From: Ignavibacteriaceae bacterium
GTDB lineage: Bacteria > Bacteroidota > Ignavibacteria > Ignavibacteriales > Ignavibacteriaceae
NCBI GenBank assembly: GCA_035478175.1
Contig: DATIJX010000031.1
Location: forward strand, 2,854 to 66,853
Direction: 5' to 3'
DNA: 64,000 bases
Below are positions 39,601 through 48,998 of the stretch, piece after piece (positions within the stretch are counted from its first letter, which is position 1; each line of letters opens with the position of its first letter). A program made the position numbers and the translations under genes. The notes under the pieces are model-generated. The model did no database searches and had not been told where the DNA came from. It saw only the letters and a list, made by a program, of their open reading frames with translations.

Positions 39601-40014
39601 ACTTCTTTCAAGATAATCTTCAGTCAATTTTGATTTTAGCTTTAGTTCCGTGTCAGTTGAAGCGAGAATTTTTAAGTCCTCGACAATCAGCATTCCCCCG
39701 GATATATTTTCTTCTTCGTATATAGGAAATCCTTTTATGAATAAAGAAATATGACCACCACTTTGAGTTTCAACTCTTTTTATTTCTTTTTCAAAAGAAT
39801 TACCTTTAATAATATTTTTTAGATCCTGGGCCAGATCTGTAGAATTGAATAGCTTAAATTCGAATAAGTTAACGCCTGGCACAGGGCGATTGAACTGATA
39901 TAAAATTCCAAACTTGTTAAAGTTTTTATTGATATACTCAACGAAACCATCACGGGAATATGTAATAATTCCCAATGGAATTTGATCGATATGTATTGAT
40001 AGGCTCTCTTCCAT
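36643..40014 (-). CDS. multi-PAS hybrid sensor histidine kinase with atypical C-terminal receiver
   Basis: 1123 aa with repeated PAS-like segments. H-box FLSIISHDLRTPF, G-box GSGLGLSLVKE, and a receiver with LVITEHQMPVMNG, VLTSK and FTKP. Confidence 0.9.
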   Translation of the reverse strand: MEESLSIHIDQIPLGIITYSRDGFVEYINKNFNKFGILYQFNRPVPGVNLFEFKLFNSTDLAQDLKNIIKGNSFEKEIKRVETQSGGHISLFIKGFPIYEEENISGGMLIVEDLKILASTDTELKLKSKLTEDYLERSEDFIVVTDTAGDIKFSAGKENSKLRLFRKEITGKNIGEVFNSTTKQKILESFSIAVRQRICQSVRLEIRTEETNTPTDCKIDPVIGDNGYVQFLYLVFKEIPEAKHEIISKPTYSNELNFYKELAKLTDNAVLLVSKSGEVIYQDDLFQRLTGLKKEESENQQITTLFPQVTPNEFQNIIKELDNKNQLEYKTIIENRIEGKIPVDLTFFISEIDSSVVIIVCKKSEIEPIKHEQEKKQAVESRTESDKTAEPMIKIDRTGSILLANQSLKLLLNFPDIELYSKNFFELIKTDDPVNLKDEIASLKVGEEKSSPIKIKNFTGDEIQTNLILQVEQTVDGLPHIIYCTLSSSYKIQRKVLPDSVHKSLFTASQDGIAVELDGKLILANDSFAKIFQYKDATEIQSKNILELVSEDDVARVKDYLISKKSGLKTQERIEFLAKKKDGSTFYSEFSAAVFEQEDKIFLVVLAMDVTERKRTQKVLRESEQKYRSITENIDDFLYTFERSGDFFKPLFFTTAVQKVTGYTQDEFLSDSRFLLKIIHPDDFTDVKKKLKILWDSIPDTTGEIELRIINKEGNVVWVRNKLNIIRDSENRVQKIYGLVSDITFNKRAEEELKVSAANLKKLNEAKDRFLSIISHDLRTPFSSILGFTDLLIDDDTLSEFEKKQYISYIQESSKSMLALVNSLLDWTRLQTGRIKFEPEKINAQELINNSISTVSGNAVKKGIKIQNLVEASHYLFVDKSLVLQVFNNLLSNAVKFTKRGDSITISAKPSSALRFMQFSIKDTGRGIKPDNLSKLFNIETKFSSEGTAGEKGSGLGLSLVKEIILKHGGKIDVNSEFEKGSEFIFSLPVASAKILLVEPNKRDRILYSKILMNIASDYAVSIVANGNEALERIISSPPALVITEHQMPVMNGYNLVRELIKSGLKSITPVIVLTSKIERAAVQQYVELGIEHVFTKPVNLRSFKEAIEKSIRKSISNNNHSK

Positions 40015-40407
40015 TCAAAAAATTTTCACTGTTTGGGATTTATTATTATTTGTGCTTTGCCCTAAAAGAAGCTTTAACAGAATCTAACAGCAATAATAAT
40101 GCTATCAGATTGCATATTTTTATCATTTATAACCTAATGCCATTTTATTGATTTCGGTTTGTATTATTTTTAATGATTATTAGAAATTCTTTAGAAATAA
40201 GCTATTCTCAGCTAATTAATTGATCATTAGCTGTAGTTCAAGGGCGTCAATTTGAACTGCAAAATTAACTTTAACGTCTCATTCTGGTAACTCTAACTCT
40301 CATCTTAATAATAATGTAACGATTTACAGTTGTTATTCAGATTTAGGAAAATAAGCAATCAAGCTAAAAAAATTTGTAAATTTTAGTAGTAAACAATAAA
40401 CATTCCC

Positions 40408-41181
40408 GTGAACAAAGATATTTTTCAAATACTGGGTAAGAGGTCCTCATCATTTCTTGAAGAGTTTGGACAAATTTTTCTCCTGCTATTCAGAATGGTA
40501 AAAAATTTTAAAAACATTCACAGAACCCGCAAGCAGATTCTCTATCAAATGCAGCATATTGGTGTTGATTCACTTCCACTGGTAATTATCATTTCAATAT
40601 TTACAGGTGCAGTTGCAGCCTGGCAGGCAGCTTATCAGTTAAAAGGCATTGCTCCTCTTTCATTATTAGGTGGGACAACAAGCAGAGCAATAATAACTGA
40701 ACTCGGTCCAGTGTTAACTGGAATAGTAATAGCAGGCAGAGTCGGTGCATCAATAGCTGCAGAACTTGGAACAATGAAAGTCACTGAACAAATTGATGCA
40801 CTTGAAATTATGGCTATCGATCCGGTAAGATATTTAGCGATGCCCCGATTTTTAGCTGCTTTATTGATGATGCCGATATTAGTGATTTTTGCAAATACAA
40901 TCGCTGTGGCCGGTGCGTACGTAGTGTCGGATTATTTTCTACAGGTACCTTATAATGTTTTCTTCGGTTCAGTGAGGCAGTTTTTTGAATTCTCTGATCT
41001 TACAGGTGGTTTAATAAAAACTGTTGTATTTGGAGGAGTTACTTCATTATTAGGTTGTCACATCGGTTTTAGAACATCAGGCGGCGCAGAGGGTGTAGGA
41101 CTTTCAACCATTCGTTCTTTTGTGTTATCTGCGGCACTGATTTTAATTCTTGATTATTTCTTATGGACTTTACTTTTTTAA
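40408..41181 (+). CDS. mlaE: MlaE-family ABC transporter permease
   Basis: 257 aa with a GTG start. GPVLTGIVIAGRVGASIAAELGTMKVTEQIDALE is the MlaE signature region. Confidence 0.85.
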   Translation: MNKDIFQILGKRSSSFLEEFGQIFLLLFRMVKNFKNIHRTRKQILYQMQHIGVDSLPLVIIISIFTGAVAAWQAAYQLKGIAPLSLLGGTTSRAIITELGPVLTGIVIAGRVGASIAAELGTMKVTEQIDALEIMAIDPVRYLAMPRFLAALLMMPILVIFANTIAVAGAYVVSDYFLQVPYNVFFGSVRQFFEFSDLTGGLIKTVVFGGVTSLLGCHIGFRTSGGAEGVGLSTIRSFVLSAALILILDYFLWTLLF

Positions 41182-41292
41182 TTTGATTTTAATCTAATGA
41201 AAACATTCTGTGACTTTAATCAATTAAGAGTTTAAATTCTCTTTAAAATTCAGTACCATGGATTTATATTTAACAAAATTCTGGAGCAAACA

Positions 41293-42381
41293 ATGGAAGC
41301 AATCCAATTCAATTTAAAAGAAAGAAAAACCGAAGTTATCCTGCCTGAATCTCTTGGCTTCGGAAAAATTTTTACCGACCATATGTTCGAAATGGATTAC
41401 AATGAAAAGCTTGGATGGCATAATCCTGCAATCCGTCCGGTGGAAGATTTACAAGTTCATCCGGCTTCAATGTTCATTCATTATGGTCAGACTGTATTCG
41501 AAGGATTAAAAGCATTCAGACAGGATTCAGGGGATGTGGTTATTTTCAGACCCGATAAACATCTTGAAAGATTGAATAATTCTTCAAGACGGGTTTGTAT
41601 CCCTGAGGTAGATGTTGATTTTGTCCTCGAAGCATTGAAAGAACTGATAAACATCGATAAAAACTGGATTCCAACTAATCGAGGGGATTCTTTATACATT
41701 CGACCTTTTATTTACGGATCAGATCCTTTCCTAGGAGTTAAACCAGCAAAAGAGTATAAACTAATTTTACTTTTATCTCCGGTCGGTGCCTACTATCCCG
41801 AGGGTTTCAAGCCAGTAAAGATTTTAGTAACTGATGAATACGTTAGAGCTGTTAGAAAAGGATTAGGTGATTGTAAGACTGCCGCAAATTACGCAGCAAG
41901 TCTTTTAGCTAGTCAGGAAGCTGTTAAAAAAGGTTTCACCCAGGTCTTATGGCTTGATGGTGTTGAACAGAAGTATATTGAAGAAGTTGGGACTATGAAT
42001 ATTTTCATCAATCTTAAAAATGAAATTGTTACTCCAAAGTTAAATGGCAGCATTCTACCTGGCGTTACAAGAAGATCCGTAATTGAGATACTCAAAGAAT
42101 GGAAGATGAATATCGTAGAAAGAGATATCACAATTGATGAAGTTGTGAATGCATATGATAAGGGAAATTTAATTGGTCTTTTTGGAACCGGTACTGCAGC
42201 TATAATATCTTCAGTTGGCTGGTTGACTTATAAAAACAAGCAAATGGTCTTTAACGATGGAAAACCAGGAGAACTAGACCTCAAACTTTTCAATGAACTT
42301 ACATCAATTCATTATGGATTAAAGGAAGATACTCACGGCTGGTTAATGCCTGTCGAACAGAAAGAAGTTGTCATCTCTTAA
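41293..42381 (+). CDS. ilvE: branched-chain amino acid aminotransferase
   Basis: 362 aa class IV aminotransferase (FEGLKAFR, YIRP, AKTAANYAAS, EVGTMNIF, GVTRRS). Confidence 0.9.
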   Translation: MEAIQFNLKERKTEVILPESLGFGKIFTDHMFEMDYNEKLGWHNPAIRPVEDLQVHPASMFIHYGQTVFEGLKAFRQDSGDVVIFRPDKHLERLNNSSRRVCIPEVDVDFVLEALKELINIDKNWIPTNRGDSLYIRPFIYGSDPFLGVKPAKEYKLILLLSPVGAYYPEGFKPVKILVTDEYVRAVRKGLGDCKTAANYAASLLASQEAVKKGFTQVLWLDGVEQKYIEEVGTMNIFINLKNEIVTPKLNGSILPGVTRRSVIEILKEWKMNIVERDITIDEVVNAYDKGNLIGLFGTGTAAIISSVGWLTYKNKQMVFNDGKPGELDLKLFNELTSIHYGLKEDTHGWLMPVEQKEVVIS

Positions 42382-42389
42382 ATTTTAGC

Positions 42390-42423
42390 GGGGTAGAATC
42401 TTTTCAGGCTTCTACCCCATTTC
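42390..42423 (+). terminator. rho-independent terminator after ilvE
   Basis: GGGGTAGAA (42390-42398) pairs with TTCTACCCC (42410-42418), followed by ATTTCAT. Confidence 0.7.
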
Positions 42424-42475
42424 ATCTCTAAATTCTTATAAACTAACCTTTCCCATAAAAAAAATAAAAAACCTC

Positions 42476-42524
42476 TTGACAAGTGTTCATATGTGCACTA
42501 TATTTGCAGTGAACAATTGAGCAC
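42476..42524 (+). promoter_or_regulatory. sigma70-type promoter with two 16-bp palindromic boxes (candidate LexA operators)
   Basis: TTGACA (42476-42481), a 17-nt spacer, then TATATT (42499-42504). GTGTTCATATGTGCAC (42483-42498) fills the spacer. GTGAACAATTGAGCAC (42509-42524) lies just downstream, 5 nt before the lexA ATG. Confidence 0.6.
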
Positions 42525-42528
42525 TACT

Positions 42529-43176
42529 ATGAAAGACAAATTAACAGACAGACAAGAGGATATTCTTACTTTTATAAAGCAATTCACTTTAGAAAGTGGA
42601 TATCCGCCTACTCTTCGTGAAATAGGAAAACATTTTCAAATATCCTCTACCTTCGGTGTTAAAAGACATCTGGAGGCCTTGGTTAAAAAAGGCTTTATAA
42701 ATATTGAAAGCAATGCCAGCAGGGGAATTTCAATGATCAGAAGAAATTCAGAGGATTTAATTGATGCAACATTCAGAGATGACAATGCATTTGTAAAAAT
42801 TCCGGTAATTGGTCGGGTTGCTGCTGGTATACCAATAAATGCTGTGGAAAATTTAGAAGGTTCACTAGTTGTTGATCCTTCCTTTCTTAAAAAAGCAGAA
42901 GATGCATTTGCTCTACGTGTAAAAGGGGACAGTATGATTAATGCCGGAATAAATGACAAAGATCTGGTAATTGTTTCGCCAAGAGAACAGGCTAAGAATG
43001 GAGACATTGTCGTTGCTATGCTAAACGATGAAGCAACGATTAAAAAATTTGAATTCATAAACAATAAAATACGACTCATTGCAGAAAACAACGCCTACTT
43101 GCCGATTGAAGTCAAAAGAGAAGATGACTTCAAAGTTATCGGTAAAGTTAAAGGGGTTGTGCGATGGTTAAATTAG
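42529..43176 (+). CDS. lexA: LexA repressor
   Basis: I place the start at ATG 42529, because the track GTG at 42493 lies inside the promoter. Winged-HTH N-domain (LTDRQEDILTFI...GYPPTLREIG), VAAG cleavage site, GDSM Ser and ATIKKF Lys. Confidence 0.9.
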   Translation: MKDKLTDRQEDILTFIKQFTLESGYPPTLREIGKHFQISSTFGVKRHLEALVKKGFINIESNASRGISMIRRNSEDLIDATFRDDNAFVKIPVIGRVAAGIPINAVENLEGSLVVDPSFLKKAEDAFALRVKGDSMINAGINDKDLVIVSPREQAKNGDIVVAMLNDEATIKKFEFINNKIRLIAENNAYLPIEVKREDDFKVIGKVKGVVRWLN

Positions 43177-43190
43177 AAAGGAGCAGCACA

Positions 43191-43439
43191 ATGAAAACAG
43201 ATATTTTTATTCAAGCTATTCGAAACAGAAATAATCTTCAATTCCTTTATGGTTTACAGGAAGTAAATCTTGAACCATACTATATAACAACAAATACTTT
43301 TGGCAGAAAAGTTATTTACGGACGACTCAGAAGTACAAACGAGATAAGAAAATTTGAATACAACAAGATTGCTAATATCAGAATACTTGAATCATTCAGA
43401 TTTTCTCCACTTATTCCAATTAATTCTTTTGCGGTATAA
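43191..43439 (+). CDS. small protein, possibly a stand-alone WYL-like beta-barrel
   Basis: 82 aa from ATG 43191 with an AAGGAG RBS, 14 nt after lexA. LQFLYG...EPYYI...GRKVIYGRL...IRKFEYNKIANIRIL resembles the WYL pattern. This is by eye only. Confidence 0.5.
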   Translation: MKTDIFIQAIRNRNNLQFLYGLQEVNLEPYYITTNTFGRKVIYGRLRSTNEIRKFEYNKIANIRILESFRFSPLIPINSFAV

Positions 43440-43618
43440 GATAGGATAGTGTTATGAACATTTCAGAAAGAAAAGCAATAGATCTTTTAGTCAATGAATT
43501 CTGGCGGCTTGGTTTTTTTACTGTCAGTCGAAGACTTGGTACATATTTGCCTGAACCTGAAGATATAGGAAAATTCAAAGTTGATGTAATTGGAAGGCAG
43601 AAAGAAAAATATGCCATT

Positions 43619-45283
43619 GGTGGATGTCGCATAGGACGCATATAAAAGATACTTCTGGTTAGAATAATTATTTTCAACAAACTGTTCTTAAAGACAATTT
43701 ATATTTTCTATGAAGACCTATTAATAAATCAATAAGAAGAAATAAACCAGTTTGAACAAGCTTTTCAGGAAATAAAACAACCCGCCCCATCTTTTTAAGA
43801 TTTAGAGCAAGCACTATCATCATTATTTCTATAGAGGCTCCTTCAAAACCTTTTCTGCTAAATCTTCTAAAACCTAAATTCCATTTGATGTTACCAAATA
43901 CTCTTTCTACTGCCTTTCGCTGATTCATCTTCTCCGGACTTTGCTTTATTTTTTCTCTCATCAATTCTTTTCTCTCTGTAAATTCCGTTCTGGTAACTCT
44001 TCTTAATTTATTCTTCCTGGCACATAAATGTTTTATTATACAGCCGCTACAATTCTCGGATTCGTAAACTCCCGGTTTTATTTCCTTTAACTGTCTCTGA
44101 TTTGGGCAGCTATATTCATTGGTCCCTTTTGAGTAAGTGAAAAACTCTGATGTTATTGCTTTTCCTCTTTCCAATAATTTCTCCGGCTCGGGTATTGTTT
44201 CCACCTCTCTGGAATCATTTATATATGCATTTACTTTTGCCTCTTCTACATAATCAATTGTTTCTGTTGACATATAGCCCCCATCTGCAAGATATTCTCT
44301 TTGTTCATCTTCACCTAATATCTCCACTGTATTTTGATGCTGCTTACTAAACTGATGGTTATCTGATCTATCCGCCTCAACCGTTGCATTTATAATTATT
44401 TCTGATTCTGTATCTACACTTAATTGAACGTTATAACCATTGGCATTTATTTCCTTCATCATCCGGGCATCCGGCTCTATTATATTTATTTGATGATTTT
44501 CTCTGTTTTCTTTATCCTTAATTTCCTTTTGCCTTCTTGCAAGTTCCTTTTTTGATTCTTCTATTCTTTGCTTTCTTATTTCAAGCCGATTCCGTTCCTC
44601 TTCCAGTTTCTTAATTGCTTTTTCATCTCTGTTTTCTTTTTTGTCGTTTTCTTCTAATAAGTTTAACAACTTCTCTATCTTTCTGATTATAAACTTCTCT
44701 TCTTTTTCCAGAGTATTCATCTTCATACTATGCTTTTTACTGCCCGATGATTGAAACTTACTTCCATCTATTGCTATTGTGCTAAAGGTACTCATTTTGT
44801 TTTCTTTTGCTAATCTTATCAACTGGGGAAGCAGTCCGAAAATTTCTTTTCTAAACTTCTTTAAGAATCTTGCTATTGTTGAATGATCCGGTTTCCGGTA
44901 TTCGGTGAAATATATAAAGTAAACATCTCTTATACATTTCTTTTCAATTGCTCTTGAGCTTAATATTCCTTCTAATGCCCCTAAAATCAAAATCGCAAAT
45001 AAAACCTCCGGTCTATAAGCTACTGCCCCTTGGTCCGAATACCTTTTATATAATTCACTGAAATCTAATTTCTTTATTAGCTTATATAATTTTACCGCTT
45101 CGGATTGTTCATCAACCAAAAAATTTACGTTTGGCTTTTCGAATTGAAATTCTAAATTATCTTTTTGTTCTTTGAAAAATGGCATCTTATTTTTTTATTT
45201 TGTGATATGCCATTTTATTTAAAATATTTTTTTAAAGCAATTAATTTTTTCCCTTTTTAAACTTTTTCTGTGCGACACCCACC
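43619..45283 (-). mobile_element. IS1182-family (IS5-like) insertion sequence, 1665 bp
   Basis: Terminal inverted repeats are GGTGGATGTCGCATAG (43619-) and the reverse complement of CTGTGCGACACCCACC (-45283), with 14/16 matching. It holds a single transposase ORF. I see no target duplication. Confidence 0.8.
43674..45185 (-). CDS. IS1182-family DDE transposase
   Basis: 503 aa. N-terminus YRPEVLFAILILGALEGILSSRAIEKKC...KPDHSTIARF, a coiled-coil middle, a Cys cluster, IAIDGSKF and LADGGY, and C-terminus VERVFGNIKWNLGFRRFSRKG. Confidence 0.88.
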   Translation of the reverse strand: MPFFKEQKDNLEFQFEKPNVNFLVDEQSEAVKLYKLIKKLDFSELYKRYSDQGAVAYRPEVLFAILILGALEGILSSRAIEKKCIRDVYFIYFTEYRKPDHSTIARFLKKFRKEIFGLLPQLIRLAKENKMSTFSTIAIDGSKFQSSGSKKHSMKMNTLEKEEKFIIRKIEKLLNLLEENDKKENRDEKAIKKLEEERNRLEIRKQRIEESKKELARRQKEIKDKENRENHQINIIEPDARMMKEINANGYNVQLSVDTESEIIINATVEADRSDNHQFSKQHQNTVEILGEDEQREYLADGGYMSTETIDYVEEAKVNAYINDSREVETIPEPEKLLERGKAITSEFFTYSKGTNEYSCPNQRQLKEIKPGVYESENCSGCIIKHLCARKNKLRRVTRTEFTERKELMREKIKQSPEKMNQRKAVERVFGNIKWNLGFRRFSRKGFEGASIEIMMIVLALNLKKMGRVVLFPEKLVQTGLFLLIDLLIGLHRKYKLSLRTVC

Positions 45284-45709
45284 GAAGGGATAACATTGAA
45301 TAAAGAGGATATATTTAACCCTAACCTCATCGAGAAAATTAATTACCTGGCTTCAAGAAAAACCAGATTATCAGACAAACCTATTTTGCTGCTCATCGGT
45401 GTACCAAACCTTTACTTCAAACAAGTAAAAGAGCTTTTGTTAAGTGTCGATGAAAAAGTAAAAAGGAATATTAAACTTACCCGGATTCTTGAGGAAGATT
45501 TTGAAAGCCGCCGTAGCATCAGACATACACAACAGATGATTTTTTCATAAATCTTTACTCTCCACGCTCTATTTTTACCTTTCTTACTTGCAGTAATCAA
45601 GATAATATTCATTTGAATATAATAATTTACTTGTAATAGCATCGTTCACCTTGATTTTATAGGCGCACGGATATAATTTTACGGGCTTCATCAAATTAAA
45701 AGTTAAGGA

Positions 45710-46501
45710 TTGGCCAGAAAAAGTACACAATCTGATAAAGCTCTCCAGGAGGACCTTAAGAAGAGCGGCGATATCCCCTCTCATATTGCAATAATTATGG
45801 ACGGAAACGGCAGATGGGCTAAAAGAAGAGGTTTGCCCCGCGTTGCAGGGCATAGGAGAGGGGTAGAAACTGTTCGCGAGATAGTGGAAGTTTGCGCCGA
45901 AGTCGGTGTAAAGTATCTTACTCTTTATACATTCTCAACTGAAAACTGGAAAAGACCAAAGGATGAAGTCTCAACATTAATGAGATTGTTGTTAAAGAGT
46001 CTCAAAGAACGGTTAGATGAACTTAATAAAAACGACATTAAACTAACGTGCATAGGAAACATTGAATCACTCCCGGACGTCGTACAGAAGCAACTTTTTG
46101 AAGATATTGAACGAACGAAGAATAACAAAAGAATGACATTGAACCTGGCCTTAAGCTACAGCGGTCGATGGGAACTTTTAGAAGCAGTTAAATCAATTTC
46201 ACGAAAGGCTGCGGAGGGAAAAATTACTCCCGATAGCATAACAGAAAAAACTATTTCGGATCATCTCACTACTATAAATATGCCCGAGCCCGAATTAATA
46301 ATCAGAACCAGCGGTGAATTTAGAGTAAGCAATTTTCTGCTCTGGCAAATAGCTTATTCGGAATTTGTTATTCTTGATGTTTATTGGCCTGAATTTTCCA
46401 GAAGCCATTTATATGAGGCCATCAGGCAATACCAGAAACGTGAACGAAGATTTGGTAAAGTAAGTGAGCAGATACATAATTCTACAAATGCAAATCATTA
46501 A
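45710..46501 (+). CDS. uppS: undecaprenyl diphosphate synthase
   Basis: HIAIIMDGNGRWA, TLYTFSTENWKRP and RTSGEFRVSNFLLWQ. TTG start. Confidence 0.92.
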   Translation: MARKSTQSDKALQEDLKKSGDIPSHIAIIMDGNGRWAKRRGLPRVAGHRRGVETVREIVEVCAEVGVKYLTLYTFSTENWKRPKDEVSTLMRLLLKSLKERLDELNKNDIKLTCIGNIESLPDVVQKQLFEDIERTKNNKRMTLNLALSYSGRWELLEAVKSISRKAAEGKITPDSITEKTISDHLTTINMPEPELIIRTSGEFRVSNFLLWQIAYSEFVILDVYWPEFSRSHLYEAIRQYQKRERRFGKVSEQIHNSTNANH

Positions 46502-48998
46502 AGGGATTCACATATTGAAGCTTCGTTGGCTGGTGATTTTTTTATTGGCTGGTTTATTTTCTATTACATCCTTTCCACAAGGAACTCAGAAGAGTTATAA
46601 GATTCTTGGTATTTCAGTTGAAGGTAATAAATCAGCTGATGCTGCAACAATTATTGCAAACAGCGGATTGAAAGTTGGCAGTGAGATTCAAGTGCCGGGG
46701 GATCAAACTCTTAGTGCAATCAAACAATTATGGACACTTAATATTTTTTCCGATGTTCAGATCTCAATTGAAAGAGAAATTACGGAAGGAATTTTTCTAC
46801 TTATAAAAGTTGATGAGTACCCCAGACTTGAACGTGTTGCGATAGAAGGAAATGATGAAATAGATACTGAGGATATAGAAGCAAAAATTACTTTCCTGAG
46901 AGGAACGGTCATTTCTCCTCAATCAATTGCAAAATTAAAAATCAGGATAAAAGACCTTTACGCTGAAGAGGGTTTTCTTAATGCGGAGATAAAAGATGAT
47001 ACCTATGATTTCTTCGCTGCAGACACAGTAGATGAAGATATTACTGTAATCTGGCGGAACAAAAAAGATTTCTCTGATGAATATCAATACACCTATGAAA
47101 GCAGTGATCAAATTTATTCGAACCTTATTGATAGAATTAAAGATCGTGTTCTGCTAAAACTTACTATTGAAGAAGGAAATGAAGTTGTCGTCAGGGCCAT
47201 TGAGTTTAACGGTAATACAGTTTTTGATGATGATGAACTTTCTGGTGAGATGGATGAAACCTCCGTTGCTGTTTGGTGGAAATTTTGGTCAAGCGCACAA
47301 TTCAAACCGAAAGATTTTGAAAAAGACAAGCAGCTCATTGTCAATTACTATAAAAAGAACGGTTACAGGGATACGGAATTACTTAGTGATTCACTTATTT
47401 ACTTCAATGATAACAAAGACCTAAGAATCGTTATTAATGTTTATGAGGGTCCTCAATATAAAATTAGGAATATAACGTGGGAGGGAAACACAGTTTATCC
47501 CGATTTTGTACTTAACGAAAGACTTGATTTTGCCAAGGGTGATGTTTACGATTATGAAAAGTTTGAAAGAAATTTACGTGGTAACGAAGCTCAAACAGAT
47601 ATTTCTGCTCTCTACCTTGATAATGGTTATTTGACTTTTAATGCTCAGGCTGAAGAAAAAAGAGTGGCTGATGACTCGATTGACGTTCATATTCGAGTAG
47701 AAGAACGCAACCAGTTCAGAGTTTCACGGGTTGAAATTGAAGGGAACACTAAAACGAAAGACAAAGTAATCCGCAGAGAACTTTTTACTATTCCGGGAGA
47801 TTATTTTAACCGTGCATTTTTATTCAGGAGCGTTCAGCAGCTTGCGAATCTTCAGTACTTTAGTGCAGAGAAACTTTATGGTCCAAGTGGTATAGATACA
47901 AAACTTGAAAGCGATAGTACAGTAGCTATAATTTATAATGTAGAAGAAAAATCAAGCGATTACCTTAATGCATCCGTTGGCTATAGCGGAAGTTTTGGAT
48001 TCAGCGGTTCTATTGGTGTAACTCTCACTAACTTCTCAATCGCAGAACCATTTTCACTTGGCGGTGGTCAGATATTAAATTTTAACTGGCAGTTCGGTTT
48101 TGGAAATATCTATCGTACTTTTACAATCGGATTCACCGAGCCATGGATGTTTGATACTCCAACTTCAGTGGGCGTTGATCTGTTCGATACCCGTCAGCAG
48201 TATGTTTATGATTTACGTCAGACCGGTGCAACGCTAAGAGTTGGCAGAAGATTAAAATGGCCAGATGACTTTTTCTATATTCAGGGAAGAGTCAGATATC
48301 AGTACAATAATGTTTTGCAAGGACAAAATTTCTATCAGGAAGGAATAACTCACCAATACACACTTGGAGCTACAATAAGCAGAAGAAATATTGATAATCC
48401 AATATTCCCATCGCAGGGCTCAGCATTTACACTTGATATGGAAATTTCCGGCGGTCCATTTTTACCCGGCGATGTTGACTATCTGAAAAATACATTTAAA
48501 GCAGAATGGTATAAGAGGTTGTTCAATACTAACAGGCTTGTATTTTATACCGTTGCAGACTTTGGCTATATTGACGAAATTGTAAAGGGCACACCAATTC
48601 AGCCTTTTGAATTTTTCTATATGGGAGGTAACGGTTTAGTTATTGCAACAGTTCCGTTAAGAGGTTATCCGGATAGAAGTGTCGGCCCGCGAAATCAATT
48701 TGGTCAGGTAATAGGAGGAAGGGTTTTCTCTAAAATCGGAGCAGAGATTCGTTTTGCAGTAACTCTTGAACCAATTCCACTATACTTGTTAACATTTGCA
48801 GAAGCAGGTAATGTTTTTGAAAGTTTTGACAAAACAGATATTTTTGATATGAGAAGATCGGCTGGAGTTGGGGCAAGGATATTAATCAATCCCATCGGTT
48901 TAATTGGTTTCGATTTTGGTTATGGTTTTGACCGTAAAATTGTTGATGGAAGAAATCCTGAATGGCTTTTCCATTTTCAATTCGGCAGAGGTTTTTAG
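46488..48998 (+). CDS. bamA: outer membrane protein assembly factor BamA
   Basis: POTRA repeats followed by an Omp85 barrel ending in FHFQFGRGF. I prefer ATG 46488 over the track GTG at 46464. Confidence 0.9.
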   Translation: MQIIKGIHILKLRWLVIFLLAGLFSITSFPQGTQKSYKILGISVEGNKSADAATIIANSGLKVGSEIQVPGDQTLSAIKQLWTLNIFSDVQISIEREITEGIFLLIKVDEYPRLERVAIEGNDEIDTEDIEAKITFLRGTVISPQSIAKLKIRIKDLYAEEGFLNAEIKDDTYDFFAADTVDEDITVIWRNKKDFSDEYQYTYESSDQIYSNLIDRIKDRVLLKLTIEEGNEVVVRAIEFNGNTVFDDDELSGEMDETSVAVWWKFWSSAQFKPKDFEKDKQLIVNYYKKNGYRDTELLSDSLIYFNDNKDLRIVINVYEGPQYKIRNITWEGNTVYPDFVLNERLDFAKGDVYDYEKFERNLRGNEAQTDISALYLDNGYLTFNAQAEEKRVADDSIDVHIRVEERNQFRVSRVEIEGNTKTKDKVIRRELFTIPGDYFNRAFLFRSVQQLANLQYFSAEKLYGPSGIDTKLESDSTVAIIYNVEEKSSDYLNASVGYSGSFGFSGSIGVTLTNFSIAEPFSLGGGQILNFNWQFGFGNIYRTFTIGFTEPWMFDTPTSVGVDLFDTRQQYVYDLRQTGATLRVGRRLKWPDDFFYIQGRVRYQYNNVLQGQNFYQEGITHQYTLGATISRRNIDNPIFPSQGSAFTLDMEISGGPFLPGDVDYLKNTFKAEWYKRLFNTNRLVFYTVADFGYIDEIVKGTPIQPFEFFYMGGNGLVIATVPLRGYPDRSVGPRNQFGQVIGGRVFSKIGAEIRFAVTLEPIPLYLLTFAEAGNVFESFDKTDIFDMRRSAGVGARILINPIGLIGFDFGYGFDRKIVDGRNPEWLFHFQFGRGF

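Follow-up and report, generated by a model that had tools for sequence, protein, structure and literature searches.

Which functions have been placed under the control of LexA in the Ignavibacteria, and do the genes that share its transcript serve repair, regulation or defence? The question is raised by a locus in the Ignavibacteriaceae bacterium assembly GCA_035478175.1, where a stretch of 64,000 nucleotides on contig DATIJX010000031.1 (positions 2,854 to 66,853 of the forward strand; hereafter the window) carries a lexA gene followed by an open reading frame (ORF) of 82 amino acids (aa) and by a third ORF that is interrupted by an insertion sequence (IS). The 82-aa protein is called WYL82 in this text, and the intact 142-aa product of the split third gene is called P142. 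The locus is, with high confidence, a conserved SOS operon with a WYL protein and a protein of nuclease fold. The explanation that best accounts for the whole, an autoregulated SOS operon in which the partners of LexA are damage-induced factors at single-stranded DNA (ssDNA) gaps or replication forks, is offered with about as much doubt as confidence.

The lexA operon and its promoter region

All three genes were located in the ORF map and in the raw sequence of the window, with intergenic spacers of 14 nt between lexA and the 82-aa ORF and of 14 nt between the 82-aa ORF and the third ORF. The 82-aa ORF is preceded by AGGAG. The features of the locus are listed here in order of position:

42390..42418, + strand: terminator-like hairpin GGGGTAGAA...TTCTACCCC 3' of ilvE (sequence reading; kept in close relatives)
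42476..42504, + strand: sigma-70-type promoter, -35 TTGACA, 17-nt spacer, -10 TATATT (11/12 consensus positions)
42482..42499, + strand: predicted LexA box 1, AGTGTTCATATGTGCACT, between -35 and -10 (position-conserved palindrome)
42508..42525, + strand: predicted LexA box 2, AGTGAACAATTGAGCACT, between -10 and the start codon (position-conserved palindrome)
42529..43176, + strand: lexA, LexA repressor, 215 aa (Pfam, TIGR00498)
43191..43439, + strand: WYL82, stand-alone WYL-domain protein by its predicted fold, 82 aa (AF2 model, Foldseek)
43454..43618, + strand: 5' part of P142, codons 1-55 (collinear with residues 1-55 of intact orthologues)
43619..45286, - strand: IS1182-family insertion, 1668 bp relative to intact orthologues (junction alignment, NF033551)
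43674..45185, - strand: IS1182-family DDE transposase, 503 aa, intact (NF033551 and Pfam)
45287..45550, + strand: 3' part of P142, codons 56-142 and stop, with a disordered tail ending in QQMIFS (collinear with orthologue residues 56-142)

The LexA protein matched the Pfam domains LexA_DNA_bind and Peptidase_S24 (E=3e-21 and 2e-37) and scored 207 bits on the NCBIfam model TIGR00498, for which the cut-off is 111. As the first-pass annotation of this DNA had reported, the Ala-Gly site (A98-G99), the serine of GDSM (Ser135) and the lysine (Lys172/173) are intact, and by its sequence this LexA looks canonical and self-sufficient.

The promoter at 42476-42504 was the best-scoring site of the region in a promoter scan. 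It is overlapped by two 18-bp palindromes, which are predicted LexA operators. The promoter and both boxes were position-conserved in 23/23 distinct upstream regions, down to a LexA identity of 44%, with only small changes to the -10 in the most distant of these regions, and the DNA farther upstream could not be aligned. The two boxes were present at a fixed mutual spacing upstream of lexA in loci L001-L029. The consensus for the lineage is AGTGAAC-N4-GTTCACT, to which the distant loci come closest, and this is likely an extended Cheo-box (GAAC-N4-GTTC) type of LexA site belonging to the Ignavibacteria. A position weight matrix built from the conserved upstream instances was used to scan the 64-kb window, and no further box above 9 bits was found besides the two at lexA. 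In the neighbouring or sister groups Balneolaeota and Bacteroidetes, the LexA motifs differ from the Ignavibacteria box (PMC7739468, PMC8565304). No published account of an SOS system or LexA operator of the Ignavibacteria was found in the searchable literature.

On this layout the lexA operon is autoregulated through predicted operators lying over its own promoter. As LexA cleavage relieves that promoter, all three genes should be derepressed on DNA damage, an expectation which follows from the operator arrangement together with established LexA biology. The three-gene operon headed by lexA that had been proposed at first pass was thus borne out, with its 14-nt spacers, one strong promoter and two LexA boxes.

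The borders of the operon are of unequal clarity. The hairpin after ilvE falls below the strict T-run criterion of the terminator scan, and it is taken to set the lexA operon apart from the upstream gene. On the other side, the 159-nt spacer between P142 and uppS (45551-45709) showed no terminator and no significant structure (fold z=0.09), so that the SOS transcript may continue into uppS-bamA. Between the lexA promoter and these two genes there now lies the IS, whose transposase is encoded on the opposite strand. An Rfam scan of positions 40000-47000 returned no RNA families. The locus is surrounded by housekeeping genes (uppS, bamA).

Other bacteria also have SOS genes linked to lexA, as in lexA-dinF of E. 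coli and lexA-sulA of Pseudomonas, and the lexA gene of B. subtilis adjoins yneA-yneB-ynzC. The operon described here resembles those of E. coli and Pseudomonas in its canonical LexA, in the operators over its own promoter and in the predicted damage-inducible passengers alongside. It differs from the known lexA operons in what these passengers are, namely a stand-alone WYL protein and a protein of apparent PD-(D/E)xK fold, neither of which belongs to a described family. The pair is restricted to the Ignavibacteria.

Conservation of the trio and the interrupted copy

Whether the third gene is one gene or two was answered by its orthologues. When the two halves were joined, the product matched more than 300 proteins, the best of which have 142 aa and align at 95% identity with 100% query coverage. 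One metagenome-assembled genome (MAG) of the Ignavibacteriaceae carries an intact P142 in the identical neighbourhood mlaE-ilvE-lexA-82aa-142aa-uppS. Since orthologues of 142 aa span the entire joined sequence, both halves belong to a single gene that an IS has split, as the first-pass annotation had claimed. The sizes given there (an IS of 1665 bp, a product of 143 aa) did not hold. Alignment of the DNA at both junctions to the intact gene placed the insertion at 43619-45286, which is 1668 bp. The GAA at 45284-45286, between the right inverted repeat and the resumed gene, has no counterpart in intact orthologues and adds a spurious Glu, so that the native product has 142 aa and not 143.

The third ORF, which begins at 43454, meets the inverted repeat of the IS at 43619. 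This repeat, GGTGGATGTCGCA, occupies 43619-43631 and pairs with its reverse complement at 45271-45283; the repeats are 13 bp long and match at 12/13 positions, and the sequence had just two matches in the 64-kb window, where 0.02 were expected by chance. The transposase was assigned by NF033551 (IS1182 family; 297 bits, cut-off 270) and by the Pfam domains DDE_Tnp_1_6, DDE_Tnp_1 and DUF772. With the junctions aligned to the intact gene, no clear direct repeat was seen flanking the IS as a target-site duplication. No second copy of the IS was found in the window, in plasmids or, in a search by exact 30-mer, among metagenome contigs. P142 is disrupted at codon 55/56. The split copy shows neither an excess of non-synonymous change nor a frameshift or internal stop, and this lack of decay suggests that the insertion is recent. 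Taken from the sequence, the IS hit was quite probably both recent and incidental. It also provides a natural IS knockout, according to which viability, in this population at least, does not depend on P142.

Intact copies linked to lexA were found across the lineage. The order lexA-WYL82-P142, then uppS-bamA, was present in 20/20 GTDB species genomes with a gene for a relative of P142, and in this survey the trio persisted down to identities of 52% for LexA, 48% for WYL82 and 36% for P142. The survey used the closer alignment A1 and is for that reason biased towards the Ignavibacteriaceae. Distant clades were sampled singly, by representatives with 24-40% identity, and the trio was present in 7/9 of these (P0244/L004, P0246, P0258, P0275, P0261, P0263 and P0276). 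At L004 the contig ends within the upstream ORF, and the remaining fragment matches LexA residues 160-214; at L034 the contig end likewise cuts the ORF in the lexA position, and the comparison with LexA was made for the L004 fragment only. The gene upstream of the trio varies and may be ilvE, murI or that of a phosphatase. The flanks are different again at P0261, where the downstream neighbour is a CHASE2 cyclase; the trio is retained there nonetheless, which indicates that it moves as a unit.

Three observations on individual genomes belong here. A fusion of WYL and P142 called at P0244 (237 aa; L004 161-874) was rejected as a gene-calling artefact, as an in-frame TGA lies between the two ORFs and had been read as sense. 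In three 'MFD' isolate MAGs (L009, L014 and L017), lexA and/or wyl82 were split into two frames in tblastn, with P142 intact in all; the split frames are most likely assembly indel errors and not pseudogenes. One MAG, CAVYHS (MFD03551.bin.3.181), held two copies of mlaE-ilvE-lexA-WYL-P142-uppS on different contigs (L011/L014), with P142 identities of 82%/80% to the window, and the presence of two differing copies points to a bin of mixed origin and not to a duplication.

The ratio of non-synonymous to synonymous substitution rates (dN/dS), calculated for the window against five relatives, was 0.05-0.17 for wyl82 and 0.05-0.07 for p142, compared with 0.05-0.09 for lexA, 0.03-0.06 for ilvE and 0.03-0.06 for uppS. 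The two passenger genes are under purifying selection that is indistinguishable from that on the flanking housekeeping genes, and the divergence of the trio parallels that of its housekeeping neighbours. The lineage-wide presence of the trio, its housekeeping-level dN/dS and the conserved LexA boxes argue for a vertically inherited SOS operon and not for a mobile toxic or defence module. Judged by its sequence conservation, the trio is a core damage-response unit, ancient in the Ignavibacteria.

These data bear most directly on the reading that had been put forward at first pass, in which WYL82 and a nuclease form a toxic effector, triggered by damage or phage and similar to defence or abortive-infection systems, that selection disfavoured and the IS silenced. 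WYL domains do regulate defence systems (BrxR, CapW), WYL82 matched the generic WYL model of PADLOC (E=8.6e-4), P142 is disrupted in this genome, and a distant homologue (P0277, described below) lies in a phage-like run of ORFs. Against this stand the core syntenic location and vertical distribution of the trio throughout the lineage and a dN/dS of about 0.05. The generic WYL model was the only PADLOC match of WYL82, none of the three P142 family members tested with PADLOC gave a match, and P142 has no canonical catalytic motif. Intact copies are the rule in all genomes examined, and the apparent frameshifts of L009, L014 and L017 hit lexA or wyl82, never P142 alone. The toxic effector is consequently considered very improbable, and the claim was abandoned in favour of a vertically inherited operon under purifying selection.

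Predicted structures of WYL82 and P142

The AF2 model of WYL82, made with a 20-sequence alignment, had a predicted local distance difference test score (pLDDT) of 83 and consists of an N-terminal helix, a five-stranded Sm-like barrel and a disordered tail. When this model was compared with the PDB by Foldseek, the best match was BrxR (7qfz; TMq 0.75, root-mean-square deviation 1.4 Å over 73 columns), and PafBC, DriD and CapW came next. The leading 25 PDB matches were WYL domains without exception, as were 30 of the leading 31 (TMq 0.66-0.77), and Hfq and other Sm proteins ranked far lower. As modelled, WYL82 adopts the WYL fold, in agreement with the WYL-like character that the first-pass annotation had assigned to it. 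A profile search of the PDB with the WYL82 alignment returned only a chance match, poxvirus A52. A label of 'YafY' on homologues was set aside, as it mirrors the WYL likeness only.

The protein has no helix-turn-helix (HTH) or WCX domain, so that the whole 82 aa constitute a bare WYL domain. It resembles PafBC, DriD, SiwR, CapW and BrxR in its predicted WYL fold (TMq ~0.75), in a conserved tyrosine at the spacing of the WYL motif and in its DNA-damage setting. Those proteins are HTH-WYL-WCX factors of 280-640 aa that are independent of LexA; WYL82, unlike them, has 82 aa and is encoded in a lexA operon. A stand-alone WYL protein controlled by LexA appears to be undescribed.

The WYL fold binds ssDNA in PafBC, DriD and CapW. 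By analogy with these proteins, binding of ssDNA or single-stranded RNA by WYL82 is favoured, with some reservation. The invariant residues of WYL82 include Y20, Y30, K40 and Y43. By sequence spacing, with no residue-level superposition, Y43 lies at the position of the WYL-motif tyrosine, which in DriD contacts an ssDNA phosphate (PMC9186387). Also by sequence spacing only, Y20, R53/K54 and Y57 match DriD Y168, K202 and W206, residues through which DriD touches ssDNA (PMC9186387).

The tail of WYL82 (residues 70-82; window 43398-43436) carries the motif F-S-P-x-I-P-I, which across the family reads [FG]-[STA]-P-x-[IL]-P-[IL] with P-x-I/L-P invariant. Clamp motifs of the MutL type have the form Qxx[LI]xP, and the WYL82 tail loosely recalls this form. 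Alternatively, the tail could be a docking peptide for P142 or for another partner.

A WYL protein encoded beside lexA could also act on the SOS switch itself. WYL82, perhaps together with P142, would then be a sensor of ssDNA with an effect in trans, either on the binding or cleavage of LexA or on the RecA filament. Small proteins are known in such roles, DdrR for UmuDAb and DinI/RecX for RecA; the LexA-like UmuDAb of Acinetobacter has a small accessory co-repressor (PMC11332147). The gene layout points to a co-transcription with lexA that is strict and ancient, and the other damage regulators of bacteria, PafBC and DriD, sense ssDNA by means of their WYL domains. WYL82 is similar to DdrR in being lineage-specific, in its length of ~80 aa and in its place beside the gene of a LexA-like repressor. 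DdrR is not known as a WYL protein, and the likeness is one of size and gene position only. The canonical and self-sufficient appearance of LexA tells against a co-regulator, as does the lack of an HTH or WCX domain in WYL82, and genes of SOS effectors often share lexA transcripts as well. A role of this kind is distinctly unlikely.

The model of P142 (pLDDT 87) has a core with the order α-β-β-β-α-α-β-α-β, followed by a disordered tail of low pLDDT. The order of secondary structure fits the αβββαβ core of the PD-(D/E)xK superfamily. In a Foldseek search of the PDB, the top matches were all PD-(D/E)xK proteins, namely NucS (2vld; TMq 0.52), MspJI, XisH, McrC, AF1548, Bax1, Hjc and RecU. In the viral library BFVD, they were MmcB-like proteins, RecB-family nucleases and restriction enzymes (best E=2e-4, TMq ~0.55). 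On the basis of the model, a PD-(D/E)xK-like fold for P142 is a reasonable but weak assignment. The likeness to Hjc/YraN-type nucleases noted at first pass was borne out at the level of this fold, as far as so weak an assignment goes, and not at that of the catalytic (D/E)xK.

Residue statistics for P142 were taken from alignment columns over 31 divergent members. D44, just before strand β2 at the 'PD' position, was present in 28/31 sequences and D10, in helix α1, in 26/31. Strand β3 reads Y-A-I-G-I-x-L, with G56 in 29/31 sequences where E or D is expected; the canonical (D/E)xK is absent and G-I-x stands in its place. Further conserved polar residues are R26, K/R27, R/K48, D/E63, K72 and R/K82. 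As the catalytic motif is not conserved, nuclease activity of P142 is doubtful, and the conservation pattern makes us lean towards a protein that is non-catalytic, or at least non-canonical.

No meaningful sequence-level family was found for P142 in Pfam (31 members searched), NCBIfam, PADLOC, PHROGs or PDB profile searches. The family itself is small, with 49 clusters in a profile search of 1.84 billion representatives, and its named members are all Ignavibacteria, except for one MAG labelled 'Bacteroidetes bacterium'. The labels 'YnzC/DUF896' and 'riboflavin synthase alpha subunit' carried by homologues had no support from Pfam and were rejected.

The fold nevertheless leaves room for an enzyme. 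P142 might be a true repair endonuclease, induced in the SOS response and comparable to MmcB, NucS or Hjc, whose active site is permuted and non-canonical; WYL82 would then be the subunit that senses ssDNA or targets the enzyme. Permuted active sites occur in the PD-(D/E)xK superfamily, for example in Cfr10I/NgoMIV. The fold matches of P142 favour this proposal, as does the conservation of D10 (helix α1), D44 (before β2), D/E63, K72 and R26/K27. MmcB of Caulobacter, an SOS-regulated PD-(D/E)xK protein, offers a precedent (PMC9578287). P142 is like MmcB in its small single-domain fold of predicted PD-(D/E)xK type and in its predicted SOS control, and Hjc, RecU and XisH are likewise small folds. 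It has no sequence-level relationship to any of the four and no conserved catalytic triad. The G-I-x motif of β3, with its nearly invariant glycine, and the absence of sequence matches to nuclease families in Pfam, NCBIfam and the PDB speak against catalysis, and the endonuclease is held to be unlikely.

The top PDB match of P142 is NucS/EndoMS (2vld), and the layout of that protein, a β-barrel that binds ssDNA, a PD-(D/E)xK domain and a clamp motif at the C-terminus, would be paralleled by WYL82 and P142 taken together. The two differ from NucS/EndoMS in being separate polypeptides, in having a barrel of WYL fold and in missing the (D/E)xK; the identity of P142 to it is ~15% at a TMq of 0.52.

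The C-terminal tail of P142 would give the parallel its third element. Beyond the last strand, P142 is disordered and unalignable, with short hydrophobic motifs. In the clade of the window it ends in QQ[MV]IFS (QQMIFS here), and relatives end in …QQPLFS or …RVLFS. Divergent clades carry x-[SD]-L-F about 15-20 residues before the end (ELDLF, QASLF, EVDLF, SVSLF, PTDLF, APSLF, LPSLF) and in addition end in Φ-F/Y-x-[SN]. In bacteria, proteins that bind the β-clamp carry QL(S/D)LF at their C-termini (PMC9690074), and NucS employs a C-terminal clamp-binding motif (PMC6159521); by its sequence, the tail of many P142 members contains what looks like such a motif. The core as defined in the literature ([SD]LF or Qxx[LIM]F) was sought in the last 30 residues of 20 representatives of 50%-identity clusters. 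It was present in 10/20, compared with 1.0±1.0 in shuffled tails, and 0/5000 shuffles reached 10, a test which overstates the significance because the P142 sequences are related. Binding of P142 to the clamp is proposed tentatively, with more doubt than confidence.

If the tail does occupy the clamp, it could do so as a brake. P142 would then be part of an SOS checkpoint, filling the cleft of the β-clamp and slowing replication or division in the manner of UmuD2C or SocB. The clamp-binding-like tail and the lost catalytic motif are compatible with this, and it is by the usual clamp-binding motif that SocB attaches to the clamp (PMC9690074). The motif pattern in the tail is, however, post hoc and drawn from related sequences, and members of the trio without a tail exist. 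There is also no signature of toxicity, and P142 is under strong purifying selection. A checkpoint role is therefore regarded as quite improbable.

A proposed role at ssDNA gaps and stalled forks

The reading that is preferred here keeps the two proteins downstream of LexA. A sigma-70 promoter under two LexA boxes would drive lexA and two lineage-specific genes, and DNA damage, by causing the cleavage of LexA, would induce all three. WYL82 would bind the single-stranded nucleic acid that is exposed, P142 would bind DNA or branched structures while tethered to the sliding clamp, and the pair might act together at ssDNA gaps or stalled forks. In a variant that is distinctly unlikely, and is related to the co-regulator reading above, WYL82 and P142 would form a NucS-like machine, encoded by two genes and tethered to the clamp, which is no longer catalytic and serves as a fork or gap sensor.

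Several observations weigh against this reading. WYL82 scored only 13.1 bits (E=0.098) on the Pfam WYL family (PF13280), below the gathering score of 21.8, and its ligand could be RNA. The structural matches of P142 are weak (TMq 0.3-0.56, E ~1e-2 to 2e-4), and D10, D44, D/E63, K72 and R26/K27 could, to judge by their conservation, form a permuted active site. The tail pattern was recognised only after the tails had been inspected, the relatedness of the sequences inflates the test made of it, and P0263 and P0276, both members of trios, have no P142 tail. Two distant homologues of P142 were found outside the trio. One of them, P0277 (131 aa, no tail; L032 3001-3396), has neither lexA nor WYL nearby. 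The other, P0272 (120 aa, tail-less; L035 3001-3363), has no lexA or WYL and lies in the order recO, htrA-like protease, P142-like gene, nadA; as it is solitary, the P142 fold can exist outside the lexA trio.

The context of P0277 is an 83-kb contig with co-directional small ORFs that lack Pfam or meaningful PHROG matches, and it looks phage-like or mobile.

For the biology of the Ignavibacteria, the locus provides the likely LexA box of the lineage and two strongly conserved, lineage-wide SOS genes that lie outside the described families. It also offers a small and tractable test of what a bare WYL domain might do; to our knowledge, the sensing of ssDNA by WYL domains has been described only for transcription factors that are independent of LexA. 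If the clamp-binding tail is real, P142 would be a further, hitherto undescribed partner of the sliding clamp that is induced by damage. If WYL82 acts on LexA or RecA, the cleavage of LexA by RecA* and the sensing of ssDNA by a WYL domain would be joined in a single operon of the Ignavibacteria.

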